NCBI GenBank assembly: GCA_964609775.1
Contig: CAZSSJ010000002.1
Coordinates: forward strand, 19,260-83,259
From: an uncultured Gammaproteobacteria bacterium
Lineage (GTDB): Bacteria; Patescibacteriota; Microgenomatia; JAMCZE01
DNA: 64,000 nt
Direction: 5' to 3'
This document shows, piece after piece, positions 20,351 to 57,293 of the stretch. The notes under the pieces were generated by a model. That model had not been told where the DNA came from, did not search any database, and worked only from the letters and a program-made list of their open reading frames with translations. How positions within the stretch are numbered: position 1 is the first letter of the stretch; the number at the start of each line of letters is the position of its first letter. The translations under genes and the position numbers were made by a program.

Positions 20351-22557
20351 GAAAAAAAATATTTTTCCTTCCGTTGATATTTCTTATCGTTTTTGCGGCT
20401 CTTTTTTATTCTCCCCTAATTTTAGAAAAAAAACTTCCCATTCCGGCGGACACCATCGTCGGTCTGTATCACCCCTGGCGGGACTATTTTTCTAAAAATT
20501 ATCCAAACGGAATTCCCTTCAAAAACTTTCAAATCACCGACTCCGTCCGGCAACAATATCCTTGGCGAAGCCTGTCAATTGATCTGATCAAAAGGGGAGA
20601 GGTGCCAAGGTGGAACCCCTATTCGTTTTCGGGCACTCCCCTGCTGGGGAATTTTCAATCAGCTGTATTCTATCCCCTCAACATCCTCTACCTCTTGGTG
20701 AGCGATTTTGCTTCTGTTTGGGCCATCCAGGTGGTCTTGCAAACAGTTTTGGGTGGAATTTTTATGTGGGCCTATCTCCACAATCTGAAGCTAAAACCTC
20801 AAGCGCAAGTTCTGGGAACCTTGGCCTGGGTCGGCAGCGGATTTTTTATCGCCTGGCTGGAGTGGAACACGGTCGTTCATGTGGCCATCTATTTACCGCT
20901 GGTTCTACTCACTATCGATGAAATCATTCTGGAAAAACATTCCCCCCCAAAAAGCATTTTTTGGCCTTTTGTCTTTGTGGGCGCTTTAGTCAGTAGTTTC
21001 TTTGCTGGATATCTGCAGCCGTTCTTTTATGTCTTTATAACCAGCTTGGTTTATCTGTCAGCCAGAGTGTGGCAGACGAAGAAGTTTCAAAAGCTCCTGC
21101 TGTTTTCAATTCTGTACGTCCTTTTCTTTATCATTAGTCTTCCTCAACTGATCCCGACCTTAAGTTTCATAAATTTGTCCGCCCGCGACGTTGACCAGGC
21201 AAATTGGACTCGGCCCGACTGGTTCCTCCCTTGGCAAAACTTAATTCAGCTCGTTGCTCCCGATTTTTTTGGCAATCCGGCGACTCTCAATTATTTCGGC
21301 GTTTGGAACTATCAGGAGTTTGTCAGTTTCATTGGCACCGCACCACTTGTTTTCGCCCTGGCAGCCCTTTTTATGCGCCGCGATAAAAAGACGCTTTTTT
21401 GGGGAGCTCTTTTGACCTTGACCTTAGTCTTCGCCTTACCCACGCCAATTGCCAGGTTGCCGTACGTTTTAAAATTGCCCTTTCTCTCAACTGCCCAACC
21501 ATCAAGAATAATAATGCTGGTAGACTTTGCCCTGGCGATCCTGGCCGCACTTGGCCTGGATCACTATTTGCGAAAATCCCCGCGCGCTCCTTTGGGCAGT
21601 ACCTTAATTGTTGTTTCGGCCCTGGCTCTTCTACTTATCTTTACTTATAAGTCAGGCCTGCTGGTCAGTCAGAGAAATCTCATTTTACCCCTGGTAATAA
21701 CCGTCGTCGTTTTCTTCCTCCTTTCCGTCGTCCATTTGGTCAAAAAAACTAAATCCGTCATCGTCCTGGCAATTCTCATCCTTACCTTATTTGACTTGCT
21801 TCGTTTTGCGACAAAGTTTGAACCGTTTTCGCCCAGAGAATATCTTTACCCTTCAACAAAAATACTTTCTTTTCTTGAGGGCAAAGCAAAAGAAGAAGTC
21901 TTTCGAGTGGCTGCCCTGGACGATCGCATTTTGCCCTCAAATTTTAATGTTGCTTATAAAATTCAGATGGCCGCTGGCTACGATCCACTTTATTCAAAAC
22001 GCTACGGACAATTTATCGCCTCACTTGAGCGGGGAAAGCCCGACATCTCCCCGCCTTGGGGATTTAACAGAATTATTACCCCCAAACTTGTCGGCAGTCA
22101 CCTTTACGGCCTTTTAAACACCAAGTATGTCCTCTCTTTTGTTGATTTTCCTCAGTTCAAACTTCTTGCTAAAGAAGGGGACACCTATCTATTTGAATAC
22201 CCGGACGCTCTTCCCCGGGCCTTTTTTGTTTCCCGGACGATAAATGCCATCAGCGGTAATGAAGCCATAAGCAAAATATATTCTTCGGACTTTGATTCCC
22301 GAAACAGTGCCGTGGTAGAAAACTTCCGCACCGCTGCCTTTACGACCGGACAGGCAAAGATAACTTCCTATACGGAAAATACTGTCGTGCTTCAAACGCA
22401 AAATACCTCTGAGGGCTTCCTAGTGCTGCTGGACGCCTATTATCCTGATTGGCATGCCACTGTTGATAGTGTTCCTACTCAGATCTATATTACAAACTAT
22501 ATTTTCAGGGGCATAAAAGTGCCACGCGGGAATCATCTCGTGAAATTTCAAATATGA
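20347..22557 (+). CDS. YfhO-family membrane protein (paralog 4)
   Basis: YHPWRDYF...YPWRSLSIDLIKRGEVPRWNPYSFSGTPLLGNFQSAVFYP. C-terminal YYPDWHATVDSVPTQIYITNYIFRGIKVPRGNH. ATGA overlap upstream. Confidence 0.8.
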   Translation: MRKKIFFLPLIFLIVFAALFYSPLILEKKLPIPADTIVGLYHPWRDYFSKNYPNGIPFKNFQITDSVRQQYPWRSLSIDLIKRGEVPRWNPYSFSGTPLLGNFQSAVFYPLNILYLLVSDFASVWAIQVVLQTVLGGIFMWAYLHNLKLKPQAQVLGTLAWVGSGFFIAWLEWNTVVHVAIYLPLVLLTIDEIILEKHSPPKSIFWPFVFVGALVSSFFAGYLQPFFYVFITSLVYLSARVWQTKKFQKLLLFSILYVLFFIISLPQLIPTLSFINLSARDVDQANWTRPDWFLPWQNLIQLVAPDFFGNPATLNYFGVWNYQEFVSFIGTAPLVFALAALFMRRDKKTLFWGALLTLTLVFALPTPIARLPYVLKLPFLSTAQPSRIIMLVDFALAILAALGLDHYLRKSPRAPLGSTLIVVSALALLLIFTYKSGLLVSQRNLILPLVITVVVFFLLSVVHLVKKTKSVIVLAILILTLFDLLRFATKFEPFSPREYLYPSTKILSFLEGKAKEEVFRVAALDDRILPSNFNVAYKIQMAAGYDPLYSKRYGQFIASLERGKPDISPPWGFNRIITPKLVGSHLYGLLNTKYVLSFVDFPQFKLLAKEGDTYLFEYPDALPRAFFVSRTINAISGNEAISKIYSSDFDSRNSAVVENFRTAAFTTGQAKITSYTENTVVLQTQNTSEGFLVLLDAYYPDWHATVDSVPTQIYITNYIFRGIKVPRGNHLVKFQI

Positions 22558-23237
22558 AACTTTCCATCATCGTCCCAGCATATAACGAAGAAAAAACCAT
22601 TACTAAAGTCATCGATAAGTTATTGCGACTAAAAATCCGTGGTTGGCACAAAGACGTAATTGTCGTTGACGATGCTTCAACCGATCAAACACTCCAGCTT
22701 TTAAAAAACTACCGGGGAAAAATTACCCTCATCCATCACTTAGCCAACCGCGGAAAAACGGCGGCCATAAGGACTGCTGTTCGTCAGACAAGCGGTGATT
22801 ACATCATCATTCAGGATGCCGATCTCGAGTATGATCCCAAGGATATTCCCCTTCTGATTCGCGCTCTCGGTGATAGTAAAGACGCAGTTGTCTTTGGCTC
22901 CCGATTTGCAACGTCAAAGTATGTCGACACTGTCTTTGGTCACAAATTCGGCAACAAGTTGCTGACTCTTCTGGCAAATTTGCTCTACAGGTCAGACATT
23001 TCAGACATGGAAACTTGTTACAAACTCATTCCGGGTCCATTTCTTCGAAGCATCACCCTACAATCTGACCGTTTTGGTTTTGAACCGGAAATTACGGCCA
23101 AGGTGCTTCGAAGTGGGAGAAAAATCAAGGAAGTGCCTATTTCCTATGTCAAAAGATCAGTCACCGAAGGAAAGAGTATCCGTTGGTGGCGCGACGGCTG
23201 GGCCACGGTAGCCATACTGATTCGCTATCGTTTATGA
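22554..23237 (+). CDS. family 2 glycosyltransferase, DPM1-like polyprenol-phosphate sugar synthase (soluble type)
   Basis: IIVPAYNEE...VVDDASTD...IIIQDADLEYDP. Confidence 0.8.
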   Translation: MKLSIIVPAYNEEKTITKVIDKLLRLKIRGWHKDVIVVDDASTDQTLQLLKNYRGKITLIHHLANRGKTAAIRTAVRQTSGDYIIIQDADLEYDPKDIPLLIRALGDSKDAVVFGSRFATSKYVDTVFGHKFGNKLLTLLANLLYRSDISDMETCYKLIPGPFLRSITLQSDRFGFEPEITAKVLRSGRKIKEVPISYVKRSVTEGKSIRWWRDGWATVAILIRYRL

Positions 23238-24859
23238 AATTTCTAATCCTCTTTCTTATTGTAATCCTGGCCTTTTTACTTCGCTTCTATCAGCTCTCAA
23301 CAAATCCCCCGGGCCTCAATCTCGACGAAGTGGCCATCGGTTACAATGCCTACTCTATTCTCCGTACTGGCAGAGACGAGTATGGCAAATTTCTCCCGAT
23401 TGTTTTTCGCTCCCACGACGACTACAAACCACCCCTATACATTTATTTAACCGCGCCTTCAATCGCCGTCTTTGGGGTCAATGAGTTCGCCGTTCGGTTT
23501 CCCGCCGCGCTTTTTGGGACCCTGTCAGTGCTGGCAGTATTTTTTCTCAGCCGGCAACTTTTTTCTTCCTCTAAATTAGCCTTGCTGTCTTCTTATTTTT
23601 TGGCGATTTCCCCCTGGCACTTGCAATTCACCCGAGCGGCATTTGAAACTGGCGTGACGGTTTTTGCCACCGCCGTTGGGGTTTTCTTGTTCCTTCGCGG
23701 GCTAACGAAAAAGAGTTCCGCCTCCCTCATCCTCGCCAGCCTCGCCTTTGGATTGGAACTCTATCTCTACCAGGCTGCCAAGGTTTTTATTCCTCTTCTT
23801 GTCATCGCTCTTCTGGCTCTCAACCTTCAGAAAATTATCAACCAGAAGAAAAGAGTCCTTGTTTTCGTCTTCATTTTTGCAACTTTCTTCCTTCCCGTTG
23901 CCTTCCTTTCCACAACCCGCGCGGGCCAACTTCGCTTCCAAGGAACGAGTATTTTCAAAGAGTATCTCCCATATGCCCATGCTCAGTCCTGGAGAGAAGC
24001 CGATCAACTCTCCGGGAGTACTTTTGCCGCCTCTCTTTTCCATCCACGCTTTTTAACTTACCTTCCCTCAGTCATTTCCGGATACCTGTCCCACTATGAC
24101 CTCACCTTTCTCTTTGTCGGTGATCACGGCCCGCCGAATAATTATGTCCCTGGAGCGGTTGGTCTTCTGTATCCCTGGGAGATCCTCGCGGTCATTCCTG
24201 GCTTGTATTTTCTTGCCCGACGTTTTCGCCCCGCCTCGCTAGTCGTCTTTGCTTGGTTTCTTCTGGCTCCCTTGCCGGCTTCCGTGACCTCCGGCGTCCC
24301 TAGTGCCACCCGCACCGCACTCAGTCTTCCTATCTATCAGATCATCACCGCGCTTGCCATTGTTGTGTTGTTAAATATCATCAGGAACCATTCACGCTTC
24401 TGGGCAAACGCTTCTTCCTTGGCCTTTTTGCTTCTGACTGTCCCCATCGTCACCTATTACCTGCATATGATGTTTTTCCATGCCCCTCGGGACTATTCAG
24501 ACATTTGGTTTTATGGCTATAAAAACGTCGTTGCCGAGACGGCTCGCCTTGCTCCAAACTATCGTCGGGTGGTTGTTTCCACGGCGCTAAAACAACCCCA
24601 GAATTTTTTCGCTTTCTTTTTACGCTATGATCCCTTGACCTACCTGCGTGTTGACGGGGGAACCGTTTCTGGCGGTTTTAAGGAAAACCGAAATCACTTC
24701 GCTAAGTTCAACTTCACTTCCTCTGATTGGGAGACGCTTCTCAAAGAGAAGTCACTCTTATTTGTGGGTTTGGTAGATGACTTTCCTGATAGCATTACCC
24801 CCATTAAGACGTTTCACTATCTTAATGGCAAGCCGTCAGTTATGATAGTGGGAACGTAA
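23234..24859 (+). CDS. GT39 / PMT_2-like glycosyltransferase family membrane protein (paralog 2)
   Basis: LRFYQLSTNPPGLNLDEVAIGYNAYSILRTGRDEYGKFLPIVFRSHDDYKPPLYIY. ATGA overlap upstream. Confidence 0.8.
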   Translation: MKFLILFLIVILAFLLRFYQLSTNPPGLNLDEVAIGYNAYSILRTGRDEYGKFLPIVFRSHDDYKPPLYIYLTAPSIAVFGVNEFAVRFPAALFGTLSVLAVFFLSRQLFSSSKLALLSSYFLAISPWHLQFTRAAFETGVTVFATAVGVFLFLRGLTKKSSASLILASLAFGLELYLYQAAKVFIPLLVIALLALNLQKIINQKKRVLVFVFIFATFFLPVAFLSTTRAGQLRFQGTSIFKEYLPYAHAQSWREADQLSGSTFAASLFHPRFLTYLPSVISGYLSHYDLTFLFVGDHGPPNNYVPGAVGLLYPWEILAVIPGLYFLARRFRPASLVVFAWFLLAPLPASVTSGVPSATRTALSLPIYQIITALAIVVLLNIIRNHSRFWANASSLAFLLLTVPIVTYYLHMMFFHAPRDYSDIWFYGYKNVVAETARLAPNYRRVVVSTALKQPQNFFAFFLRYDPLTYLRVDGGTVSGGFKENRNHFAKFNFTSSDWETLLKEKSLLFVGLVDDFPDSITPIKTFHYLNGKPSVMIVGT

Positions 24860-24866
24860 GACACCC

Positions 24867-26402
24867 ATGGCCCGAGCAAGCTCCATCGTTTTACTGTTAG
24901 TAGTTATTCTGGCGAGCCTCTTGCGGTTGTATCGGATACAGACCAACCCGCCCTCACTCTATCGGGACGAAGTTTCGATCGGCTACAATGCCTATTCGAT
25001 CATCAGCACCGGCAAAGACGAGTGGGCAGCGGCCTTCCCGCAAACCTTTAAATCGTTCGGTGATTATAAATTGCCTTTGTATATCTATCTCGTGGCCGGA
25101 CTGGAAAAATTTCTTGGGCCGACTGAACTGGCCGTCCGCCTGCCCTCAGCACTTGCCGGCATTCTTTCTGTGGTAGTGATGTTCTTTTTAATGACTGAGA
25201 TAAAACTGTTGGTGTTAAAGCACTACCCCGACTTTAAATTTCTCCGCGGCTACACTCTAGCGCTTCTTTCGGCCTTGCTGTTGTCAATTTCCCCCTGGCA
25301 CCTCCAGTTCTCCAGGGCCGGCTTCGAAGCCGGTCTTGGTCTTCTGTTTTTGACGGCTTCGCTGGTCTTTTTTTTACTCTCGCTGCGAAAAAGCAGTCAC
25401 TTTTTCCTTCCCGCCGTCATTTCTGCTGTCGGGTGCTTTTACAGCTATCACAGCGCCGCTTTTGTCCTTCCCTTTCTCGCTCTCGCCGCCATAGCGATCT
25501 TTTTTCGCCCAGTCTTTTCCCGGGGGAAAATTGTTCTTGTTGGGCTCATCCTCGGAGCCGTCCTTTTAATGCCTTACCTTCCCCAATATTTCTCTGCCGG
25601 AACAAATCGAGTCGCTTTCACCGGTATTTCCGTTGTTAACCAGAAAGGGGACGTGCTTTCTAACTTTGTCCAAAATTACGTGGCCAACTTTTCCTTTGAC
25701 TATCTCTTTTTCAAGGGCGACCAGGAAGGCCGGCACTCCGTCAAGAAGCTCGGGGAACTCTATCTTTGGCAATTCCCGGCCGTTTTGGCCGGAATTTATT
25801 TTCTCCTTCGCTTCCGTTCAAAGGCCAGTGTTCTTCTCTTTGTCTGGCTGCTTGTCAGCGCCCTCCCCGTCGCCCTCACCCGCGTCTCCCCCCACGCCCT
25901 AAGAAACCTCATGGCCGTTTTTCCCTGGCAAGCCGTCTCGGCCTTCGGCCTCCTCTATGTTTTGCGCAAAACAAGAGCCGCCGGGGGCTTTATCTTTGCC
26001 ATAATCTTTGTTTATGCCCTGGTAACCTATCTTCACCAATACTACGTCCACTATCCCGTCTCCTATGCCGCCGATTGGCAAGATGGTCAAAAACAAGCAG
26101 TCACCTTCCTAAAACAGGTGGAAAAGAACTACTCCGAAATCTTTCTGACCAAAGATCTCTACCCTATATATTTAAAGTTCTTTTTGCCCTACCCTCCGCA
26201 GAAACTTCAAGAAAGCAGCCACAACGAAAGCCAATTGGGCAAATATAAATACCTAACTCCCGCCCAAGCCCCAAAGAAAGAATTTCCCGACCGGACTTCT
26301 CTGATGATTGCTCCTTCCTGGATGGGCTCCGATGTCATGCGAGCTCTCCCGTCGATTAAAATGACTAACGGTGATGTTGCCTTTCGCGTCTATGAATTTT
26401 AA
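24867..26402 (+). CDS. GT39 / PMT_2-like glycosyltransferase family membrane protein (paralog 3)
   Basis: LRLYRIQTNPPSLYRDEVSIGYNAYSIISTGKDEW. Confidence 0.8.
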   Translation: MARASSIVLLLVVILASLLRLYRIQTNPPSLYRDEVSIGYNAYSIISTGKDEWAAAFPQTFKSFGDYKLPLYIYLVAGLEKFLGPTELAVRLPSALAGILSVVVMFFLMTEIKLLVLKHYPDFKFLRGYTLALLSALLLSISPWHLQFSRAGFEAGLGLLFLTASLVFFLLSLRKSSHFFLPAVISAVGCFYSYHSAAFVLPFLALAAIAIFFRPVFSRGKIVLVGLILGAVLLMPYLPQYFSAGTNRVAFTGISVVNQKGDVLSNFVQNYVANFSFDYLFFKGDQEGRHSVKKLGELYLWQFPAVLAGIYFLLRFRSKASVLLFVWLLVSALPVALTRVSPHALRNLMAVFPWQAVSAFGLLYVLRKTRAAGGFIFAIIFVYALVTYLHQYYVHYPVSYAADWQDGQKQAVTFLKQVEKNYSEIFLTKDLYPIYLKFFLPYPPQKLQESSHNESQLGKYKYLTPAQAPKKEFPDRTSLMIAPSWMGSDVMRALPSIKMTNGDVAFRVYEF

Positions 26403-26820
26403 CTTTCTCTGCACTAAGGACTGGATCCTCGGCGATGTTCCCCTTCAGCTCTGGGAAGCAACCACCGCCGATGGTCCCACCGCGAACGCTTTGCTGACTC
26501 GGTTTCTCCATAATAAGCCGATGTTTTATTTGGACAATTTTCTCCGCTGCTATCTGTCCTATCTTTCGGCAGACTTTTTGGTCAAAGCCTTCTCTCTCTT
26601 AGGATTAGGACTTTTCATTTTCGGAGTCTACCAAGCCATCCGACAGCGAAGAAAATGGCTGTTAAGCATTGTTCTAATGACCCCGTTGTTCCCCCTTTTT
26701 CAATTTCCCGCGGCTAACTTAGCCCAGGGAGTTCTTCTTTATGGTTCACAATTAGCCCTGATCTTGTTTGGTCTCCAACAACTCATTAAAATTCTAATAC
26801 AAAAATTCCGTGCGCCTTAA
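26371..26820 (+). CDS. small hypothetical membrane protein (about 3 TM)
   Basis: 149-aa ORF that fills the only otherwise unexplained approximately 400-nt gap in the GT39 array. It has three hydrophobic segments. There is no homology evidence. An alternative start is at 26392. Confidence 0.35.
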   Translation: MMLPFASMNFNFLCTKDWILGDVPLQLWEATTADGPTANALLTRFLHNKPMFYLDNFLRCYLSYLSADFLVKAFSLLGLGLFIFGVYQAIRQRRKWLLSIVLMTPLFPLFQFPAANLAQGVLLYGSQLALILFGLQQLIKILIQKFRAP

Positions 26821-28399
26821 GCTACTTTTAATCAGCATAGTTCTCTTAGCCGCCATTCTCCGGCTCTATCGTTTGGCCAATGCCCCCCCCAGTCTCTACT
26901 GGGACGAAGCCTCAATTGGCTATAACGCCTACAGTATTGCCCAAACACTTCGCGACGAGCACGGCGAATTTTTGCCTCTGACGCGTTTCATCGCTTTTGG
27001 TGACTATAAACCACCGGGCTACATCTACGCTGCTGCTCTCTCCGTTAAGCTTTTTGGGCCAACGGAGTTTGTAGTCCGTCTACCCTCCGCTGCAGCAGGA
27101 ACTCTTTTGGTTCTCGTCAGTTTTTATCTCGCCCGAATGCTTACAGGAAACGCCAAACTAGGCCTGGTGACGGCCGCGCTTTTGGCTGTTTCTCCCTGGG
27201 CCCTCCAATTTTCCCGGGGCGCTTTCGAAGCCAATTTAGCCACTTTGTTTTCCTCTGCCGGACTCTACTTTTTTGTCCGAACCATTCGCACAAAAACACT
27301 TGCTTCGGGCATCTCTAGTGCCGTTTTTTTCGCGCTTTCCCTGTACACTTTTAATTCCCACCGCGTCTTTGTCCCAGCAGTCATTGGTGCTCTGGGTCTA
27401 ATTTACTTTCGGGAGATTTGGCGCAGCAGGGGACAATGGTTAGTTTTTTTGTTAGCTCTACTTCTTCTGCTTGCTCCCCTAATCCCTCATCTGCTTTCCC
27501 GCGAGGGACAGCTTCGCTTCTATGAAGTTACTTGGCTAAACGATCTCGCCCCCATTGAACTTTCTAATTCGCGGACGGCTGTCGACGGTAACACCTGGTG
27601 GTCAGGATTAATCCACAACCGGCGGATCATTTTTTCCCAAGAGTTTCTGAAGCACTACACCGACCATTTCCGGGCTGAATTTTTGTTCTTCTCCGGGGAC
27701 GTCAATCCCCGGCTGTCGATCCAAACTGTCGGCGAAATGTACTGGCTGGATCTACCACTCCTCTTGATTGGAGTCTTCATCTTGGTCAAAAAGCGCCGCC
27801 GGGCCGCTCTTGTTCTCCTCGCCTGGGTTGTCCTTTCTCCTGTCCCCGCCGCCACCGCCCGCGAAACCCCCCACGCCCTACGCATCCTCCACATCCTGCC
27901 CTCATTGCAAATCGTCGCTGCCTTTGGCCTTTTGACCTTTTGGAAACTAGATTCCTTTAAAAAAATCCGTCTGCTTCTCGTCCCCATTTATGGTCTTTTT
28001 ATCATCATGTATCTTCATGACTATTACGTTCACTACCCGAAATTCTATTCCTCCGACTGGCAGTACGGCTATAAAGAAATGGTAGGTTTTGTTTCTTCAC
28101 TCCAGGACAAGTACGACCACATCAGTGTTACTGACACTTTGGGCAGACCCTACATCTATCTACTGTTCTATCAAAAATACCCCCCCGAAAAATACTGGGC
28201 AAACCGTCAGGTACGCCGCGATTGGTATGGCTTTTGGTACGTCGACGGCTTTGACAAATATACATTTGGAGGTCCGTTGCCTCCTGGCCGTTCGCTCATC
28301 GTTTCCGGTCCGCAGCCAATTCCCGGCAATTGGCAGCTCCTGAAGTCCGTCACTGACCCGCAAGGAAACACCGTCTTTCAAATAAGCGAAAAGGACTAA
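26810..28399 (+). CDS. GT39 / PMT_2-like glycosyltransferase family membrane protein (paralog 4)
   Basis: GTG start. LRLYRLANAPPSLYWDEASIGYNAYSIAQTLRDEHGEFLPL. Confidence 0.8.
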   Translation: MRLKLLLISIVLLAAILRLYRLANAPPSLYWDEASIGYNAYSIAQTLRDEHGEFLPLTRFIAFGDYKPPGYIYAAALSVKLFGPTEFVVRLPSAAAGTLLVLVSFYLARMLTGNAKLGLVTAALLAVSPWALQFSRGAFEANLATLFSSAGLYFFVRTIRTKTLASGISSAVFFALSLYTFNSHRVFVPAVIGALGLIYFREIWRSRGQWLVFLLALLLLLAPLIPHLLSREGQLRFYEVTWLNDLAPIELSNSRTAVDGNTWWSGLIHNRRIIFSQEFLKHYTDHFRAEFLFFSGDVNPRLSIQTVGEMYWLDLPLLLIGVFILVKKRRRAALVLLAWVVLSPVPAATARETPHALRILHILPSLQIVAAFGLLTFWKLDSFKKIRLLLVPIYGLFIIMYLHDYYVHYPKFYSSDWQYGYKEMVGFVSSLQDKYDHISVTDTLGRPYIYLLFYQKYPPEKYWANRQVRRDWYGFWYVDGFDKYTFGGPLPPGRSLIVSGPQPIPGNWQLLKSVTDPQGNTVFQISEKD

Positions 28400-29778
28400 T
28401 GACCAGATTTCTTTTGACTGTCAGTTTTGTCATTTTGACTCTCCTCTCTTGGGTCCTTCTGTTGCGTGACGAGCAAGCAATCACCGCCTTGGGTGACTTC
28501 TCTTTGCATTTGGGAACAACCCTAACCTCCTTTCGTCAAACCCTGCTTCATTATGGCCTCAACAGCCTCGTCAGCCTCCTTTTTGCCATGTGTGTCATCA
28601 TTGCTTTTGGGGCATACTTTCAAGCCTTGCGTCAAAAAATTTCTTTAAACCAAGCGTTGCTTTTCTCCGCCATCTTTCCGGCCATTGTCTTTTTCTCCTA
28701 CCCCGCTTTGTCTACGGACATCTTTGACTATATCCTTTCTGACCGTCTCGCCGTAATTTTTGGCGCCAATGTCTGGACAACGCCCCCCTCGGCTTTGATT
28801 CCTCCCGCCGATCCCTACTTTCAACTCACCAGTTGGGGATCCCAAGTAAATCCCTATGGTCCACTCAATCAGTTTTTCTATTTGCTTGCCGGGCTGGCCT
28901 CGATGAATAATTTCTGGCTAAGCTTAGCTGCCCATAAACTCTTGCCTTTAACTTTTCTTTTGGCTTCTTTAGTTGTCGTCTCTAAAACGTTACAAAAATA
29001 TTATCCTCAGTCACAAAGTCAAGGCATCATCCTTCTCTTTTGGAATCCTCTGTTCATTCTAGAAACAGCCGGTTCCGGCCATAATGATATCTTGTGGATC
29101 TTTTTTGCCCTAGCCGCTATCTATTTTTGGCTGGGAAAAAAATTTTTTATTTCCGGCTTGCTTTTAGCTCTAGCCGTCCAGGTCAAATTCATTCCCGTCA
29201 TCCTCTTTATATTCTTGCTGGCCTCGTTAACAAGCAAGGAACGGCAAGGTGCTTTGCAATTTGCCGGTGCCTTTATAACAGTAAACATCCTGGCCTTTTT
29301 ATACTTAGGCTCAGCGGTGTTTCCCTTTCTAACTAGGCTGGTTCTGGGAGCAAGCATCTATTGGCAATCGCTGCCACAACTTGTCCATCCTCTCTACGGC
29401 CAGGAGAAAATCTTCTTCACCACCTCCTTCTTACTATTATTAACGTCCGCTCTTATCCTTGTTCTCAAACAACGAATTACTCCGCTGCTGGGATACGTAG
29501 TGGTCATGTTCTTCTACCTACTCCTCCTGACCTCCGTCTATTGGAACTGGTACATCCTCTGGATCCTCTTCCTAATCCCTTTTCTGGGCAAAACCCGTTT
29601 GACTCGTCCGATCCTCATCTTTTCTGCCACCTCCCTTCTTGCCTACCCGCTCTATTGGCTGTCGCTCCGCTTTGGTTTCGGCAGTCTCTCCTGGCAGGTT
29701 ATAATATATCTGTTTATTGCTTTGCCCCCACTGGCAAGCTTTTTCCATGAGAAAATTATTCGACGACCACAAGACTGA
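28399..29778 (+). CDS. GT-C-like polytopic membrane protein, possibly GT87/DUF2029-type polyprenol-P-mannose-dependent mannosyltransferase
   Basis: About 11 TM helices. Motifs DIFDYILSDR, NPYGPL and ETAGSGHND. TAATG overlap with the upstream stop. Confidence 0.5.
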   Translation: MTRFLLTVSFVILTLLSWVLLLRDEQAITALGDFSLHLGTTLTSFRQTLLHYGLNSLVSLLFAMCVIIAFGAYFQALRQKISLNQALLFSAIFPAIVFFSYPALSTDIFDYILSDRLAVIFGANVWTTPPSALIPPADPYFQLTSWGSQVNPYGPLNQFFYLLAGLASMNNFWLSLAAHKLLPLTFLLASLVVVSKTLQKYYPQSQSQGIILLFWNPLFILETAGSGHNDILWIFFALAAIYFWLGKKFFISGLLLALAVQVKFIPVILFIFLLASLTSKERQGALQFAGAFITVNILAFLYLGSAVFPFLTRLVLGASIYWQSLPQLVHPLYGQEKIFFTTSFLLLLTSALILVLKQRITPLLGYVVVMFFYLLLLTSVYWNWYILWILFLIPFLGKTRLTRPILIFSATSLLAYPLYWLSLRFGFGSLSWQVIIYLFIALPPLASFFHEKIIRRPQD

Positions 29779-31252
29779 CCTTCTTGTTTTTGGGGGATTA
29801 ATTCTTGCCTACTTTCTCACCCGGCTTCCCCGCTTGGATCTCATCCCAATCTTCACTGACGAGGCCATCTATCTTCGCTGGAGTCAGATCATGGCCTATG
29901 ATGCCTCGCTGCGCTATCTGCCTCTGGTCGACGGTAAACCACCACTTTTTATGTGGGCTACCTCTATTGTTCTTAAACTGTTTCCGAGTCTTGACCCACT
30001 GCTTTCTCTCAGATTAACTTCGGTCGGGGGTGGCCTCTTTTCCATGGCCGGGATAATTTTTACCTCGTATGTGTTTTTTCGCAATAAACGCATTTCTTTG
30101 CTGGCGGCCTTGCTCTATCTTGTCGTCCCCTTCACATTTTTTTATGACCGCTTTGGTTTGGCCGATAGCCTTTTGGCCGCCTTTGGAGTCTGGAGTCTTG
30201 GGTTGGGGGCTTTGCTTGTCCAGTCGATCCGCCTTGACGTGGCACTGATACTTGGGACGGCGATTGGCTTAGGACTTTTGACGAAAACCCCGGCGCTATT
30301 TTTCCTCGTCACTTTGCCGTTGCAACTCCTCCTCTTTAATTTCAAAACCAGTGGATGGAAGATTCGACTTGTGAAGTTATTTCTCCTGTTTTTATTGGTC
30401 GTAATAATTTCCCAAGCCATCTTTTCGATCCTTCGGCTTTTCCCCTTGTTTCATATGATTTCTCAAAAAAACTTGGAATTTATCGTTACTCCGGCAGAAT
30501 TTCTCGCCCGGCCCTTCGAATTCTTTTTTAACAATCTCAAAACATTGCTCACCTGGGAAGTTGGCTACCTCACTGCCCCTGTCGCTTTGACCATCGCTTT
30601 TGCCTTTCTTAGAGGCCAGGCCGTTAAGCAAAATCTCATTCTGGCAGCCATCTTTCTCATCCATCTGCTTTATATGTCCACCTTTAACAAATCAATTTTT
30701 CCCCGTTTCTTGCTCACTTTCACTCCGGGCTTGTTGGTTTTGGCGGCCGTCGGGCTTGACCAAATGTCAACTCGTCTTCGTCCGTCATTACTCGTCTTGG
30801 TCTTTGTCCTCGTCCTGGCGCTCCCAGTTTATACCGATTTCAAACTTCTAACCGATCCTCCGACTGCTCCAATTCCCGATGGCGATTCCAAGCAGTACAT
30901 CAACGCCTGGCCGGCCGGCTATGGAGTCAAGGAAATTCGCCAGTTTTTGGCCCGGGAAAGTAGCCAATATCCAAAAGTGACTATCGGCACCGAAGGCACC
31001 TTCGGGCTTATGCCCTATGCCCTGCAGCTCTATCAAAAAGACTACCCTAATGTCGAAATCAAAGACTATTGGCCCTTGGGAGAGACAGTGCCGGCAGCAT
31101 TATTGGAAGCCTCGGCCAACCACCCCACCTACTTCATTATCTACCAGCGGCCAGATGTGCCCCCGAACTGGAAGCTGCGTTTGGTCGCCTCCTTCCAGCA
31201 AGGACGAAGTAATGACTATCTCCGACTCTATCAGATTTTACCCGAAGATTGA
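29747..31252 (+). CDS. GT39/ArnT-like glycosyltransferase family membrane protein (divergent paralog 5)
   Basis: LTRLPRLDLIPIFTDEAIYLRWSQIMAY...DGKPPLFMW. An alternative upstream start exists at 29717. Confidence 0.65.
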   Translation: MRKLFDDHKTDLLVFGGLILAYFLTRLPRLDLIPIFTDEAIYLRWSQIMAYDASLRYLPLVDGKPPLFMWATSIVLKLFPSLDPLLSLRLTSVGGGLFSMAGIIFTSYVFFRNKRISLLAALLYLVVPFTFFYDRFGLADSLLAAFGVWSLGLGALLVQSIRLDVALILGTAIGLGLLTKTPALFFLVTLPLQLLLFNFKTSGWKIRLVKLFLLFLLVVIISQAIFSILRLFPLFHMISQKNLEFIVTPAEFLARPFEFFFNNLKTLLTWEVGYLTAPVALTIAFAFLRGQAVKQNLILAAIFLIHLLYMSTFNKSIFPRFLLTFTPGLLVLAAVGLDQMSTRLRPSLLVLVFVLVLALPVYTDFKLLTDPPTAPIPDGDSKQYINAWPAGYGVKEIRQFLARESSQYPKVTIGTEGTFGLMPYALQLYQKDYPNVEIKDYWPLGETVPAALLEASANHPTYFIIYQRPDVPPNWKLRLVASFQQGRSNDYLRLYQILPED

Positions 31253-31257
31253 AAGTT

Positions 31258-32910
31258 ATGACCCGCAAGATCTGGATCATCCTCCTGAGCATTGTCCTTC
31301 TGGGTGCTTTCCTTCGTTTTTACCTGCTTGGCAAAATCCCTGCCAGTCTTGACTGGGATGAAGCCTCCATCGGCGACAATGCCTATTCACTTTTAAAAAC
31401 CAGCAGCGATGAATACGGTAACCGCTTCCCGCTCTCCATTCGCTCTTTCAACGACTACAAGCCCCCCCTCTATGTCTATGCCACTATTCCCAGCATTGCC
31501 CTTTTTGGCAAGAATGAATTTGCCATCCGTTTCCCTTCCGCTTTCGTCGGTACCCTTTCAATTTTAGCAACTTTTCTGCTGATTCAACAACTTCTCAACT
31601 TCCGAAGGGAGAAAAATTCATTGCATTATTGCATTATTGCATTATTGATTTCTTTCCTCTTGGCCGTCTCTCCCTGGCACATCCAGTTTAGCCGGCTCGC
31701 CTTTGAAGCCAATCTCGCCCTCTTTTTTAGTCTCTGCGGGTGGCTGTTCCTCACTAAATTCATCTCCCAGGGGAGATGGTGGCCCATTATTCCATCGACA
31801 CTAAGCTACGTGCTTGCCCTCTATAGTTATCACAGCGCCCGCCTGGTAGTTCCTCTTTTTCTTTTAGGAATCGGATTCTACTATCACCGAATATTATTTG
31901 CCCGGATTAAAACGGTCCTTGTTGGCCTGGGTCTTGCTATAGTCCTCCTCCTGCCTTTAGCCCTGTCCACACTTCAGACGACAAGCCTGCAAGCCCGCTG
32001 GGGCGAGGTGAGCATTTTTTCTTCAGCGGGACTGCGCGATACCGTCAAAGTCACCCTCGACGCCCAGCAAGAATATTGGCGGCAAGACAAGCTCCAGGGC
32101 GATCGCCTGGCCCGGCTGATCCACACTAAATTTATCTCCTACAGCCGACTGCTGGCCAAAAACTACCTCGACCACTTCAATTTCAGTTTTCTTTTCCTTG
32201 AAGCCGATGGCAACGGTCGGCACCACGCTCCGGGGATGGGCCTTCTCTATCTTGTTGAGGCGCCGTTCCTCCTCTATGGAGGCTATCTGCTTCTTAGGAG
32301 GCGCCCGACCTACTCATTTTTTCTTGTGTGGGCTTTTCTCGTCGCCCCCTCGGCTGCCAGCCTGACTGCTGATACCCCCCACGCCGTCCGCTCCCTATCC
32401 TTCCTCCCCAGCTTTCAAATCATCACCGCCTTCGGCCTTTACAGTCTGTTGTCAAAAGTCAAAACTCTTTTCCGAGGGCCACTGCTACTTTTGATCAGTC
32501 TTCTTTTCCTGGCTAATTTTTACTACTTTTTCCACCAATATTTTGTCCATTTCGGAATCGAGCACGCTTCTTCTTTTCAATACGGCTACAAGGAGATGGT
32601 CGCCAAAGTCCGCGCCCTAAGTGGAGAATTTGACCAGATCTATGTCACTGTGAAATATGACCAACCCTACATCTATTTTCTTTTCTATGGCCACTCCGAT
32701 CCCAGAATAAAAAATGACGGGACCTTCCAACTAAGCTTTGATAAATACCGTTTTGTCAATTGGGGAGAACTGACAAACGAGCAAAAATCTAATTTGAGCC
32801 CGAAAATCTTGGCCGTCCACGCCCCCGATGACTTTTTTAGCCCCCATGTCATTCTTGACAAGATCTATTACCCGGACGGGAAAGTTGTTTTCGTCCTCAG
32901 CCACATGTGA
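31258..32910 (+). CDS. GT39 / PMT_2-like glycosyltransferase family membrane protein (paralog 6)
   Basis: LRFYLLGKIPASLDWDEASIGDNAYSLLKTSSDEYGNRFPLSIRSFNDYKPPLYVY. Contains an 8-bp tandem repeat at 31621..31648. An alternative TTG start is at 31249. Confidence 0.8.
   Translation: MTRKIWIILLSIVLLGAFLRFYLLGKIPASLDWDEASIGDNAYSLLKTSSDEYGNRFPLSIRSFNDYKPPLYVYATIPSIALFGKNEFAIRFPSAFVGTLSILATFLLIQQLLNFRREKNSLHYCIIALLISFLLAVSPWHIQFSRLAFEANLALFFSLCGWLFLTKFISQGRWWPIIPSTLSYVLALYSYHSARLVVPLFLLGIGFYYHRILFARIKTVLVGLGLAIVLLLPLALSTLQTTSLQARWGEVSIFSSAGLRDTVKVTLDAQQEYWRQDKLQGDRLARLIHTKFISYSRLLAKNYLDHFNFSFLFLEADGNGRHHAPGMGLLYLVEAPFLLYGGYLLLRRRPTYSFFLVWAFLVAPSAASLTADTPHAVRSLSFLPSFQIITAFGLYSLLSKVKTLFRGPLLLLISLLFLANFYYFFHQYFVHFGIEHASSFQYGYKEMVAKVRALSGEFDQIYVTVKYDQPYIYFLFYGHSDPRIKNDGTFQLSFDKYRFVNWGELTNEQKSNLSPKILAVHAPDDFFSPHVILDKIYYPDGKVVFVLSHM
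31621..31648. repeat. 8-bp tandem repeat (ttgcatta) x3.5 inside the GT39 paralog 6 CDS
   Basis: Read directly: ttgcatta ttgcatta ttgcatta ttga. Encodes LHYCIIALL. Confidence 0.9.
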
Positions 32911-34478
32911 CTAGGAAAGTAGTTTTTTTCTTAATCATCGTTCTTGCCGCCCTGCTGCGCCTGGCCTATCTGGCAGGAGCCCCCCCGAGTCTCAATTGGG
33001 ACGAGGTCTCGGTCGGTTGGAACGCCTATTCTCTTTTAACAACCAGCCGTGACGAATATGGCCAGTCCTTTCCTCTCTCCATTCGCTCCTTCAACGACTA
33101 TAAACCTCCCCTCTACACCTACGCGACCGCTGCCGCCATGGCTCTTCTTGGCAAAACTGAGATTGCCGTCCGGTTGCCTTCCGCTCTGGCCGGCCTTTTA
33201 ACGGTGGTTTTAATTTTTTTCCTTGGTCGAGTGAGCGGGCTGGGTGGCAAAGCGAACTTCCGTTTTGCCTATCTCTCCGCTTTCCTTCTGTCCGTCTCCC
33301 CCTGGCACATCCAGCTTAGCCGTATTGCCTTTGAAGCCAGTCTGGCCCTCTTTTTTTTCCTCTTTGGACTGGCCTTGATACTTTTCTATTTCCGTCACCC
33401 CACCACAAAGCTGCTGGCCATCCTCAGCGCTACCGGTTTTGTTCTGTCAACTTACGCTCACCATAGTGTCAAGATATTTCTACCGTTGTTTACCCTCCTC
33501 TTTGCTGCGGCTTACCGTCAACAAATTACTAAAAACTGGCCCAAACTACTTCCTGCCCTTGTCATTGGCGCGATCCTTCTTCTACCTCTAGGAAGAAACA
33601 TGCTCTACACCTCTGGTCAAGCCACCCGGGCACTTACGGTGAGCATTTTCGCCCCGGAAAACCAATTTCATTTCCAGGGAAAATCAACGCTGCAAGTTTT
33701 GACGGAAAACTATCTGTCTCATCTTGATCCCGCCTTCTTGTTCTTTGGCCGGGGTGACAATCCCCGGCATCACGCCCCAGATACAGGTGTTGTCCTCCTC
33801 TGGACTGCCCCCTTTATCATTCTTGGTCTAATTTACCTCATCAGACACCGACCAAAATATCTCGCGCTGCTCCTAATTTGGTTTGTCCTATCGCCCGTCC
33901 CGGCGATTCTCTCCATCGACAATCCCCACGCCAGCCGCTCCTTTCTCAGCCTCCCCATCTACGTTTTTCTCACTGCGCTGGGAATACTGTTTCTTGCCAA
34001 GCGAAGAGCGCTTGCCGCTTTGGGCATAGGGTTGCTGTTGGTGTTTAATCTGCTCTATTTCTTCCATCAATACTTTAGCGATCTGTCGATAAGAGATGCC
34101 CCGGCTTGGCAGTATGGTTATAAACAGCTTGTCGAACGCCTCGACTCTGTCTCTTCTAGTCGCTACCGGAAAATTTATGTCTCCACTGCCTATGACCAAC
34201 CCTACATTTATTTTCTTTTCTATGGCCACTCCGACCCATGGATAAAAAATGACGGCAGTTTTTCCCAAGCGTTGGGAAAAATCTCTTTTGTCAACTTTAA
34301 AAATTGGAGGCAATCCGATTGGGACGCCCTTGACGCTGACGATCTATTAGTTCTAACTTCAACTGATCCCCAAGATGGCTTAACAATCATTGAGGAGATA
34401 AACTATCCCGATAGTCAGGTTGCTTTTCGAATTACTCAACCAATCTCACGCCATGGCGTAATTTTGATTACACCCTAG
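32907..34478 (+). CDS. GT39 / PMT_2-like glycosyltransferase family membrane protein (paralog 7)
   Basis: GTGA overlap start. LRLAYLAGAPPSLNWDEVSVGWNAYSLLTTSRDEYGQSFPLSIRSFNDYKPPLYTY. Confidence 0.8.
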   Translation: MTRKVVFFLIIVLAALLRLAYLAGAPPSLNWDEVSVGWNAYSLLTTSRDEYGQSFPLSIRSFNDYKPPLYTYATAAAMALLGKTEIAVRLPSALAGLLTVVLIFFLGRVSGLGGKANFRFAYLSAFLLSVSPWHIQLSRIAFEASLALFFFLFGLALILFYFRHPTTKLLAILSATGFVLSTYAHHSVKIFLPLFTLLFAAAYRQQITKNWPKLLPALVIGAILLLPLGRNMLYTSGQATRALTVSIFAPENQFHFQGKSTLQVLTENYLSHLDPAFLFFGRGDNPRHHAPDTGVVLLWTAPFIILGLIYLIRHRPKYLALLLIWFVLSPVPAILSIDNPHASRSFLSLPIYVFLTALGILFLAKRRALAALGIGLLLVFNLLYFFHQYFSDLSIRDAPAWQYGYKQLVERLDSVSSSRYRKIYVSTAYDQPYIYFLFYGHSDPWIKNDGSFSQALGKISFVNFKNWRQSDWDALDADDLLVLTSTDPQDGLTIIEEINYPDSQVAFRITQPISRHGVILITP

Positions 34479-35325: not shown

Positions 35326-36075
35326 ATGTCTAGCAAAAAGCCTAAAGTAATTGTCGTCATGCCGGCATACCACGCCGAAAAAACAATTGAAAAAACCTTT
35401 GCCGAAGTGCCGAAAGGTTTGGTCAATGAGATCATCCTTGTTGACGATGCCGGCGGCGACAAAACCATCGCTATTGCCAAAAAACTGGGAATCACTGTCT
35501 ATCAGCACTCTCACAATTTAGGTTATGGCGGCAACCAGAAAACTTGCTATTGGGAAGCCCTCAAAAGAAATCCCGACGTGGTCGTCATGCTCCATCCCGA
35601 CTATCAATATAATGGCAGCAAGATTAAAGGTCTGGTCGATCCAATTTTAAACGGTGACTATGACATGATGTTCGGCAGCCGAATCAAAAGTCGGGGCATG
35701 GCCCTGACCGGGGGAATGCCCAAGTCAAAATATTTTTCCAACCGCCTCTTCACCCTGTTTGCTAATATTCTCCTTGGCGAGAATCTCTCCGAGTACCTAA
35801 GCGGGCTTCGAGCCTACAGTCGGAAGTGCTTGGAAAGTGTGCCCTACCAAAGATTTTCTGACGACTTTGCTTTTGATCAACAGTTCACCGTTTCCGCCAT
35901 TGCCAAAAATCTTCGTATTGGCGAAATTCCCATCCCGACACGCTATCATGTCGAGCAACACACCCTTCCTTTAATTAGTTTTCGAGGAGTCAAATTTGTT
36001 GTCGAAAGTTACTGGATCATCTTTCTCTATCTTCTCCGAAAAGCAAATGTGTATAAAAGCAAAATTTTCGACTGA
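35326..36075 (+). CDS. family 2 glycosyltransferase, DPM1-like polyprenol-phosphate sugar synthase
   Basis: VVMPAYHAEKTI...LVDDAGGDKT...DMMFGSR. One C-terminal hydrophobic segment. Confidence 0.8.
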   Translation: MSSKKPKVIVVMPAYHAEKTIEKTFAEVPKGLVNEIILVDDAGGDKTIAIAKKLGITVYQHSHNLGYGGNQKTCYWEALKRNPDVVVMLHPDYQYNGSKIKGLVDPILNGDYDMMFGSRIKSRGMALTGGMPKSKYFSNRLFTLFANILLGENLSEYLSGLRAYSRKCLESVPYQRFSDDFAFDQQFTVSAIAKNLRIGEIPIPTRYHVEQHTLPLISFRGVKFVVESYWIIFLYLLRKANVYKSKIFD

Positions 36076-57284: not shown

Positions 57285-57293
57285 ACTTTTGCT

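Follow-up and report, generated by a model that had tools for sequence, protein, structure and literature searches.

The DNA examined here, referred to as the window, is a 64,000-nt stretch from a groundwater bacterium with a tiny genome (Microgenomates). Between positions 23234 and 34478 it carries a row of eight genes, which we name by their first nucleotide; the paralogue ORFs were confirmed, every one on the + strand, as are the remaining genes of the row. Five are full members of one family of GT-C glycosyltransferases. These are paralogue 1 (23234..24859, 541 aa), in which a PMT_2/PMT transmembrane (TM) domain is followed by a C-terminal module (approximately 24497-24856), paralogue 2 (24867..26402, 511 aa; module approximately 26067-26399), paralogue 3 (26810..28399, 529 aa; module approximately 28049-28396), paralogue 4 (31258..32910, 550 aa; module approximately 32566-32907), and paralogue 5 (32907..34478, 523 aa), the protein that was modelled. 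P0033 (UY21_C0001G0051), a protein of Microgenomates group bacterium GW2011_GWA1_48_10, matches the product of 31258 at 100% identity. An outlying sixth member (10100..11749, + strand, 549 aa) is found 11.5 kb upstream, with a degenerate module at approximately 11345-11746.

The original prediction treated the whole interval as an array of GT39-like paralogues. This holds for the five full members, but the interval also includes 29747 (29747..31252, 501 aa), a divergent PMT_2-type GT-C protein with a soluble C-terminal region similar in size to the module, and the array is interrupted by two further genes. One of these (28399..29778) encodes a GT87/MptA-B-type membrane protein (Pfam GT87, 30.4 bits), that is, a member of a GT-C family distinct from that of the paralogues. 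The other (26392..26820), an ORF in an apparent gap, encodes a conserved 142-aa membrane protein, a stand-alone GT-C fragment whose homology is to the middle part of the paralogues, namely the extracytoplasmic "NYLxHFxxxFLF" helices and the next TM pair. It matches 26810 in BLASTP (E 1e-6) and the family alignment A2 in hhalign (probability 92.5%, E 5e-7), and its positional orthologues are 69% and 60% identical in L001 and L002, respectively, two loci from related genomes.

The array is preceded by a soluble GT2 gene of the DPMS/AglJ type (22554..23237, + strand; Pfam Glycos_transf_2, 115.6 bits), with a 4-nt overlap between its stop and the start of paralogue 1. The nearest solved relative of this polyprenyl-phosphate-hexose synthase-like protein is the Pyrococcus dolichol-P-mannose synthase 5mlz (E 8.1e-17, residues 1-205), and its top NCBIfam matches are AglJ (1.9e-32), PpgS, and the haloarchaeal dolichyl-phosphate hexose transferase, all under their equivalog cutoffs. 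It presumably makes the lipid-linked sugar donor. At least three further polyprenyl-P-sugar-synthase-like GT2s are encoded in the window: 15771 (PgfS/ArnC-like, 249 bits), 42104 (PpgS-like, 147 bits), and 35326 (35326..36075, + strand; Pfam GT2, 65.6 bits), a second AglJ/dolichyl-phosphate-hexose-transferase-like protein (NCBIfam AglJ, 1.8e-19), whose position in related genomes is just downstream of the array.

The six family members share a PMT_2/PMT-type N-terminal TM region. The N-terminal signature reported earlier for five genes and 10100 can be read in all six; LR(L/F)Y..L...P..L..DE.S(I/V)G.NAYS is directly legible in 23234, 24867, 26810, 31258, and 32907, and looser in 10100. PMT_2 (PF13231) matches every paralogue, and five of them exceed its gathering cutoff of 26.1 bits (10100, 41.4; 23234, 58.7; 26810, 61.3; 29747, 41.8; 32907, 38.1 bits), with 24867 (22.8 bits) and 31258 (25.5 bits) slightly under it. 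The N-terminal signature thus passes the earlier check, which asked for a match to PF13231/PF02366. The narrower PMT model (PF02366) is over its cutoff in 10100 (27 bits), 23234 (39), 26810 (42.9), and 32907, and was absent from 24867, 29747, and 31258 in the Pfam scan of the window paralogues. It matches 37 of 63 family members. Its scores are modest (27-43 bits) and lower than those of the broader PMT_2 model. Neither PMT_4TMC nor MIR was matched in the window paralogues or among the 63 family members at E up to 1. Assignment to GT39/PMT should be narrowed: these are GT-C proteins of the PMT/PMT_2 clan that retain the loop-1 Asp-Glu pair, but PMT_4TMC is absent.

Seven residues (R18, D32, E33, D49, R89, P132, and R139) are invariant among the 63 family members, and each of the seven paralogues of the window has them. 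K66 and R344 are each at least 90% conserved in the family and present in six of the seven; K66 is replaced by Ile in 10100, and R344 is found together with H341 at the start of helix 342-364. The hallmarks of the GT-C/PMT clan are an acidic pair in loop 1, a basic residue in loop 1 (K85 of ArnT), and a phosphate-binding Arg before a late TM helix (PMC7801869). By analogy, K66 and R344/H341 may be donor-phosphate binders, and because the alignment to ArnT opens at K-P-P opposite K-P-P (query 68 = ArnT chain 88), K66 would be the equivalent of K85. The polytopic TM bundle can be superposed on solved GT-C_A enzymes, and the family protein is equally close to ALG12, AglB, and ArnT. At the sequence level, the only PDB match is to ArnT, and it is weak (25.3 bits, residues 68-229); Pmt1/2/4 were not matched.

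In the model of 32907, the TM domain (residues 1-396) is followed by a C-terminal alpha/beta domain (398-512; nt 34098-34442) and a disordered tail. The model has 12 TM helices, a count that would place the C-terminus inside; the topology proposed here therefore draws on homology and the positive-inside pattern rather than on a clean count.

Several paralogues had been predicted to share a soluble C-terminal module, and this is so for all six genes that had been named. Using an HMM of residues 396-end built from non-window homologues only, the module (approximately 115 residues) was detected in 31258 (E 1.6e-41), 32907 (7.9e-39), 26810 (2.7e-25), 23234 (2.1e-20), 24867 (7.6e-13), and 10100 (1e-9). 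The similarity thus extends well past two genes, at a level far beyond chance. Beyond these six, the six-frame translation of the window gave no match with E <0.2. The C-terminus of 29747 is not detectably related to the module by this HMM (E 1.8), and hhalign of the C-terminus of its orthogroup against the module gave a probability of 24% over 25 columns.

The motif first reported for the module is more restricted than the module itself: the literal string YDQPYIYFLFYGHSDP occurs only in 31258, where the module is canonical, and in 32907. It is degenerate in the remaining copies, for example, GRPYIYLLFYQKYPP in 26810 or WQDGQK and DLYPIYLKFFL in 24867. Across the family, WQYGYK, directly after the last helix, and DQPYIYFLFYG are near-invariant and as conserved as the catalytic loop, which suggests that the domain probably sits in the active-site/acceptor cleft and is not a detachable lectin. 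The idea of a special substrate-recognition domain is not supported in its original form, as this is a small alpha/beta fold, closest, weakly, to C-terminal domains general among GT-C enzymes and not recognizable as a carbohydrate-binding module. There is a roughly balanced case that it is this lineage's own version of that common domain, and a part in acceptor recognition is plausible. The module alone accounts for 2627 clusters at 50% identity, and the PMT_2-type subfamily is, going by named records, confined to Microgenomates (Patescibacteria).

L001 and L002 share the gene order of the array. One-to-one orthologues are 53-74% identical, versus 19-45% between paralogues. The positional orthologue of 23234 is L001_346 (66% identical), and the orthologues in L001 and L002 are 64% and 63% identical for 24867, 74% and 62% for 26810, and 73% and 61% for 29747. 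The last of these differs from the other paralogues (19-23% identity), and its orthogroup is present in 27 loci. A GT87/MptA_B_family gene occupies the corresponding position in L001 and L002, so that the array has an embedded GT87 gene in all three genomes. The upstream GT2 has its counterpart at the same position in L001, and the gene next after the last paralogue is a GT2 in both L001 and L002. Over 82 loci, of which 72 have at least two copies (range 1 to 7), the best match of each of the 236 tandem copies was in another genome, and no same-locus pair reached 60% identity. The paralogues are thus ancient, have their own orthologues elsewhere, and have kept their catalytic residues, which points to non-redundant enzymes acting on different linkages or acceptors. 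The earlier suggestion of different specificities fits this age and individual conservation.

Among known systems, ArnT (GT83; undecaprenyl-phosphate-L-Ara4N:lipid A transferase; 5ezm/5f15) has a similar architecture, with approximately 12-13 TM helices and then a small extracytoplasmic alpha/beta domain. GT39 PMTs (yeast Pmt1/2/4 and actinobacterial Pmt) differ in both directions: the array proteins have neither PMT_4TMC nor MIR domains, and the PMTs do not have the C-terminal alpha/beta domain. In Gtr-type systems, a GT2 makes a polyprenyl-P-monosaccharide that a GT-C enzyme adds to a finished glycan outside the membrane, and different GT-C paralogues produce different linkages (PMC11127046). 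The array would share this logic, with GT2 and GT-C genes adjacent, but its GT-C proteins belong to the PMT_2 sequence family and not to GtrC/GT136, it has up to seven GT-C genes per GT2 rather than one, and no GtrA/MATE flippase adjoins it (there is no room for a GtrA-size gene within the window). The only flippase-like genes of the window are a Wzx-type gene at 13423-14877 and a pair at 56472-58574 that, by sequence, looks like an ABC transporter. The mycobacterial and corynebacterial LM/LAM and arabinogalactan sets (MptA/B/C, PimE, Emb, Aft; GT87, GT53, GT85) include many GT-C paralogues, one linkage each, which assemble a wall glycan outside the membrane from polyprenyl-P-sugars, and we propose the same for the array. 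The GT87 gene inside the array and the PpgS-like GT2 in the window add to the likeness. However, the GT-C families of those sets are mostly different, their C-terminal domains are CBMs or other folds, and the mycobacterial genes are scattered, whereas ours form one conserved row. We found no paper on such paralogue arrays in the literature.

These paralogues have a known fold and are not a new kind of system; they may well represent a Microgenomates-wide GT-C_A subfamily. The reading that we prefer, to which we give about an even chance, is that they are non-redundant, polyprenyl-phosphate-sugar-dependent GT-C transferases that elaborate a cell-surface glycan outside the membrane. The GT2 at 22554 would use a nucleotide sugar to charge polyprenyl phosphate with a hexose on the cytoplasmic side; once this lipid-linked sugar had been flipped across the membrane, each paralogue would pass that one sugar to an outer-face acceptor. 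Catalysis would involve Asp32-Glu33 in the first outer loop, with Lys66, Arg139, and His341/Arg344 binding the phosphate of the donor. As in the mycobacterial LM/LAM/arabinan GT-C sets and in side-chain addition of the Gtr type, the paralogues would carry out successive or alternative steps in elaborating a surface glycan (an S-layer or wall-associated polymer, or a lipoglycan); stepwise decoration of the cell surface is probably what they do. The DPMS/AglJ-like GT2 genes on either side of the array give contextual support for the donor, and the embedded GT87 gene, together with the Wzx-like, GT4/GT2, YfhO-type, and PTPS_related genes of the window, provides a glycan context. The analysis shows the fold, the family, the conserved residues, the synteny, and the age of the paralogues, and from these the donor, the topology, the part played by the C-terminal domain, and a glycan in place of a protein acceptor are inferred.

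The helix count of the model and the lack of room in the window for a GtrA-type flippase gene weigh against the preferred reading. Two observations count against a glycan acceptor. The PMT (PF02366) matches and the Asp-Glu pair are just as compatible with protein O-mannosyltransferases, and WQYGY resembles the peptide-binding WWDYGY of oligosaccharyltransferases, which favours a protein acceptor. True bacterial protein O-mannosyltransferases (GT39) would pass mannose from polyprenyl-P-mannose to Ser/Thr of surface or secreted proteins such as S-layer proteins, pilins, and lipoproteins, each paralogue serving its own set, with the C-terminal domain choosing the substrate. We regard this as unlikely, though a serious contender, as PMT_4TMC is absent in 63/63 members, the proteins are equally close to ALG12, AglB, and ArnT with ArnT as sole sequence-level PDB match, the array includes a GT87 polymer-type mannosyltransferase, and its surroundings are made up of polysaccharide-type genes. 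Actinobacterial Pmt, the best-known example from bacteria, is encoded by one gene, versus an array of 6-7 here. If the C-terminal domain were instead a reduced "central core" of STT3/AglB, with WQYGYK as a peptide-binding variant of WWDYG, the enzymes would transfer glycans to proteins, possibly en bloc. We consider this very improbable. Compared with four real STT3 C-terminal sequences, the module gave a non-significant profile-profile probability of 4% (P 0.0099), and past the motif its predicted helix was aligned to an STT3 segment that we take to be a beta-strand. Gln stands in place of the WWD Asp that bonds the +2 Ser/Thr (STT3/AglB/PglB, GT66, have WWDYG where the array has WQYGY), Pfam STT3 matches 1 of the 63 members and not the remaining 62, and the adjacent GT2s are of monophosphate-sugar synthase types, so that the context points to monophosphate donors and not to the PP-oligosaccharide pathway. 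A bolder and rather improbable variant keeps the module as a minimal relative of the OST core, with WQYGYK as a peptide clamp, and makes the arrays of 5-7 ancient paralogues, with the GT87 gene and the 142-aa fragment, a protein-glycan assembly line. Complex glycans would then be built on surface proteins sugar by sugar, extracytoplasmically, from polyprenyl-phosphate monosaccharides, a strategy that would be specific to Microgenomates (Patescibacteria) and would match neither en-bloc OST transfer nor single-step PMT mannosylation.

The likeness to ArnT raises the prospect of modifiers that place a sugar on a membrane lipid or lipid anchor and so alter surface charge or resistance. We consider this very improbable, since the NCBIfam ArnT equivalog (PRK13279) matched only 23234, where it scored 25.9 bits (cutoff, 567), and one lipid target poorly explains six or seven conserved paralogues. 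Patescibacteria are also generally considered to have neither an outer membrane nor lipid A. Obligate hetero-oligomers like yeast Pmt1-Pmt2, a quite improbable arrangement but one compatible with our preferred reading, would make the array the subunits of one or a few complexes, with the 142-aa protein as accessory. The genes lie close together and their stop and start codons overlap, which suggests that they are co-translated, gene content and order show strict conservation between genomes, a conserved stand-alone GT-C fragment lies among them, and PMT family members act as dimers, going by the titles of PDB 6p25 and 9i5k. However, catalytic residues are kept throughout, so that no pure scaffold is apparent, and the 1 to 7 copies per locus argue against a complex of fixed stoichiometry.

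Our result is a sound refinement of annotation and not a new mechanism. Its interest lies in a large PMT_2-type subfamily that forms ancient, conserved arrays and is uncharacterized. The product of these enzymes would reveal the surface make-up of uncultured episymbionts, the interface with their hosts and phages. The paralogues are also a natural series: they have the catalytic core in common, their C-terminal domain is small and well predicted, and their variable loops could show how GT-C enzymes choose their acceptors. Despite the very small genomes of Patescibacteria and their dependence on other cells, there are many glycosylation genes here: approximately 21 GT-C-like membrane proteins (some of them unassigned polytopic proteins) in 47 kb, together with at least four lipid-sugar synthases. 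A Wzx-like flippase (13423-14877), several GT4/GT2 enzymes, four YfhO-type GT-C genes, and two PTPS_related membrane proteins are also present. The window consists almost wholly of glycosylation genes.

The PMT-type membrane proteins encoded at 23234-34478, together with the outlying 10100 protein (genes are named here by their start nucleotide), are most likely polyprenyl-phosphate-sugar-dependent GT-C transferases with an ArnT-like architecture, each predicted to be specialised for its own linkage or acceptor in making or decorating a surface glycoconjugate. The genes of the window are closely packed, lie nearly all on the plus strand and have a glycan biosynthesis content. An array of GT39-like genes had been proposed for this interval; it holds eight genes, mostly of the PMT_2 type (polytopic proteins at 23234, 24867, 26810, 31258 and 32907, and a divergent one at 29747), but these include a GT87-type membrane protein gene (28399) and a gene of 142 amino acids (26392) that had been overlooked, while 10100 is an additional family member outside the interval. 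The 31258 protein matches UY21_C0001G0051 of 'Microgenomates group bacterium GW2011_GWA1_48_10' at 100% identity, which places the window in this genome of the candidate phyla radiation or in one identical to it.

The stretch 358-47593 is unusually rich in GT-C-type membrane proteins, with about 21 in 47 kb: four YfhO-type genes (1854, 3971, 6292, 20347), two PTPS_related membrane proteins (8613, 37536), nine PMT_2-like genes (358, 10100, 23234, 24867, 26810, 29747, 31258, 32907, 46352), and a single GT87 gene (28399) and PIG-V-like protein (40880). Three large polytopic proteins (11676, 16645, 36082), which a further one at 45235 resembles, gave no Pfam match. The window further encodes a Wzx-like flippase as well as several GT2 and GT4 enzymes, and methyltransferase-like and ABC exporter-like genes can be read in the translations by their appearance.

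The N-terminal signature of the original prediction is real, with Pfam PMT_2 matching all the named genes, though slightly below the gathering cutoff for 24867 and 31258, and PMT (PF02366) scoring above its cutoff in four genes. By sequence, ArnT is the one solved relative (E 5.8e-5, aligned residues 68-229; residues are numbered as in the 32907 protein), and it also gives the top Foldseek TM-scores (0.56/0.54). The 32907 protein was modelled with AlphaFold2 from an alignment of 63 sequences, with high confidence (pLDDT 93.9, pTM 0.93), and a fold comparison of the model lists ALG12 at 24.8, AglB at 24.6 and ArnT at 24.1, followed by Pmt4 at 23.1 and STT3B at 22.6. Since the structure matches, Foldseek and the ArnT sequence match concur, we regard the GT-C fold of the modelled protein as certain. 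The GT39 label fares less well: Pfam did not find the PMT_4TMC domain, which stands at the end of genuine PMTs, in the window paralogues or family members, and a choice between GT39, GT83 or another family is not certain. The ArnT equivalog model scored 26 bits, below its cutoff of 567, and the names already given in databases are 'glycosyltransferase family 39 protein' and 'ArnT-like'.

The model divides into a helical membrane part to about residue 396, a compact domain of alternating helices and strands (398-512) and a short disordered tail. To avoid circularity, an HMM of this C-terminal module was built from the last ~125 residues of 56 non-window homologues only and run over all open frames of the window. 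It matched exactly the six genes that the original prediction had listed, namely, 31258 (E 1.6e-41), 32907 (E 7.9e-39), 26810 (E 2.7e-25), 23234 (E 2.1e-20), 24867 (E 7.6e-13) and 10100 (E 1e-9), and no further window frame below E 0.2. The motif YDQPYIYFLFYGHSDP, described as common to several genes, occurs as an exact string in 31258 and 32907, and in degenerate versions in the rest. The soluble C-terminus of 29747 has the same length, and the presence of the same module there was not established (HMM E 1.8; hhalign probability 24% over 25 columns).

Among 1.84 billion representative proteins, 2627 clusters matched the module profile at E<=1e-3 and 1113 at E<=1e-10, with the module at the extreme C-terminus in all of the best 150 matches. 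In the 82 loci surveyed from related genomes, it is always joined to the GT-C membrane domain, save in genes cut by the end of a locus. No Pfam model covers it among the 63 family members scanned (E up to 1), and when its profile was searched by sequence against all chains in the PDB (E up to 10), the sole match was a chance one to TetR. Its structural matches, among which there is no lectin or carbohydrate-binding-module fold, score low and barely exceed generic alpha/beta proteins; the modelled module is therefore read as resembling the type of domain that GT-C enzymes usually bear C-terminally, a likeness rather than proven homology. From homology and a KRR cluster before the last helix, we infer that the module lies on the outer face. 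Counting helices from the secondary structure of the model gave 12, at odds with an outside C-terminus, and this count was left unused.

Across the family, the 10-residue blocks that vary least lie in outer loop 1 (31-70, with W-D32-E33 and D64-Y-K66-P-P), in SPWHxQFSRxAFE (131-150) and at residues 271-280. Within the module, the corresponding blocks are WQYGYK (401-406) and DQPYIYFLFYG (430-440), so the motif flagged earlier is constrained as much as the catalytic loop, which argues, at the level of sequence, that the module may contribute to the active or acceptor site. Seven of seven window paralogues keep R18, D32, E33, D49, R89, P132, R139 and G404; K66, taken as the equivalent of ArnT Lys85 since the alignment to ArnT begins at the common K-P-P, is missing in 10100 only, and R344 is shifted in 29747 only. 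The same acidic pair, loop-1 basic residue and late phosphate-binding arginine are hallmarks of the GT-C/PMT clan (PMC7801869), and with these residues kept, every copy looks catalytically competent. The suggested check for hyper-variable loops did reveal indel-rich variable segments at 111-120, 251-260 (the long loop preceding the NYLxHFxxxFLF helices), 361-370 and 451-495 (the distal half of the module); this is ordinary divergence of old paralogues and not the work of a diversification mechanism.

Enzymes that could supply a donor are encoded close by. The soluble GT2 at 22554-23237 overlaps the start of the first paralogue by 4 nt; among solved structures it is closest to the dolichol-phosphate-mannose synthase of Pyrococcus (E 8.1e-17 over the full catalytic domain), and its best NCBIfam matches (AglJ, PpgS, dolichyl-phosphate hexose transferase) all fall under their equivalog cutoffs. 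Besides this DPMS/AglJ-like enzyme, there are an AglJ-like GT2 (35326-36075), a PpgS-like one (42104-42784, 147 bits) and a PgfS/ArnC-like one anchored by transmembrane helices (15771-16700, 249 bits). Four distinct GT2s of the polyprenyl-phosphate-sugar-synthase type suggest that several distinct lipid-linked monosaccharide donors supply the GT-C enzymes. A GT2 would load the sugar on polyprenyl phosphate, and the GT-C enzymes would move the polyprenyl-linked sugar to an acceptor outside the membrane. A review covers this extracytoplasmic logic for mycobacterial arabinan and Gtr-type systems (PMC11127046), and it has been shown for YfhO-type enzymes acting on Ser/Thr-rich protein regions in streptococci (PMC12041528).

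Protein O-glycosylation is a serious rival, for which the PMT matches speak, as do the DE pair and a DPMS-like donor enzyme; we lean toward a glycan acceptor because of the embedded GT87, the polysaccharide-type neighbours and the many distinct GT-C enzymes. An oligosaccharyltransferase-like activity is a lead that stems from the near-invariant WQYGYK (nt ~34107-34124 in 32907), which directly follows the last transmembrane helix and resembles the acceptor-binding WWDYGY of oligosaccharyltransferases; there is also a weak AglB-domain match, and the last strand of the module (for example, AFRVYEF or LRLYQI) is reminiscent of the C-terminal strand of STT3 (VRIYQL). However, when real STT3 C-terminal sequences were recovered by PDB search and compared with the module profile, hhalign gave a non-significant probability of 4% (P ~0.01) and an alignment that is structurally inconsistent past the motif, and the idea therefore stays a lead.

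Identity among the paralogues is 19-45% overall, 21-51% in the N-terminal third and 13-42% in the module. Two metagenomic contigs (L001 and L002) with 52-57% identical 32907 relatives have an identical gene order, which on L001 runs GT2, PMT, PMT, small gene, PMT, GT87, PMT_2, PMT, PMT, GT2, then a 484-aa membrane protein, PTPS_related and GT2. In a neighbour-joining tree, the window genes pair with their positional counterparts (53-74% identity). When one genome per GTDB species was surveyed, 549 related stretches came up, and the best 80 of them belong to Gottesman-, Levy-, Chisholm-, Roizman-, Beckwith- and Woesebacteria and further Patescibacteria. At least two full members are present in 72 of 82 loci (~10 kb each side), and up to six in some. 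For all 236 members with a same-locus paralogue, the best match lies in another genome (median identity 59.8%, against 35.5% for the nearest neighbour-paralogue). No same-locus pair reaches 60%, and with the closer relative always in another genome, a diversity-generating mechanism can be rejected, as can recent tandem duplication. The arrays are ancient and kept copy by copy, the signature of non-redundant functions. When the ORFs of the 82 loci were assigned by best phmmer score, only the 26810- and 29747-types separated cleanly, so we claim deep orthology for none of the others. Many of the MAG records with third-party annotation in which this gene family is found (loci L005, L007, L009, L011-L018 and others) are titled 'uncultured Gammaproteobacteria/Pseudomonadales bacterium', which are probably placeholder or wrong names.

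The fold and logic of these enzymes are already known, and the literature searched held nothing specific on GT-C or GT39 arrays in CPR/Patescibacteria. That literature does not describe the lineage-specific module and its pair of near-invariant motifs, the ancient syntenic arrays, which hold up to six or seven paralogues, or a conserved stand-alone GT-C fragment gene. The latter (26392-26820, plus strand) fills the seeming gap between 24867 and 26810, and its membrane protein product shares 60-69% identity with its positional counterparts from two other genomes. This product is homologous to the middle part of the paralogues (residues ~253-330; hhalign probability 92.5%), lacks their 'GD..RHHAP' loop and is, as judged from sequence comparison, a retained fragment.

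Directly after the last paralogue, at 34475-35122 on the minus strand, lies a gene whose 215-aa product has a PaaX_M/Cas2-like domain (62.8 bits) and weakly matches a winged helix. Between 358 and 63000, no other minus-strand ORF reaching 150 aa lies outside larger plus-strand ORFs; a further minus-strand gene is found at the window end (63007-63588). The 34475 gene has no counterpart here in L001 or L002, whose last paralogue is directly followed by a GT2, and its product may be an inserted regulator.
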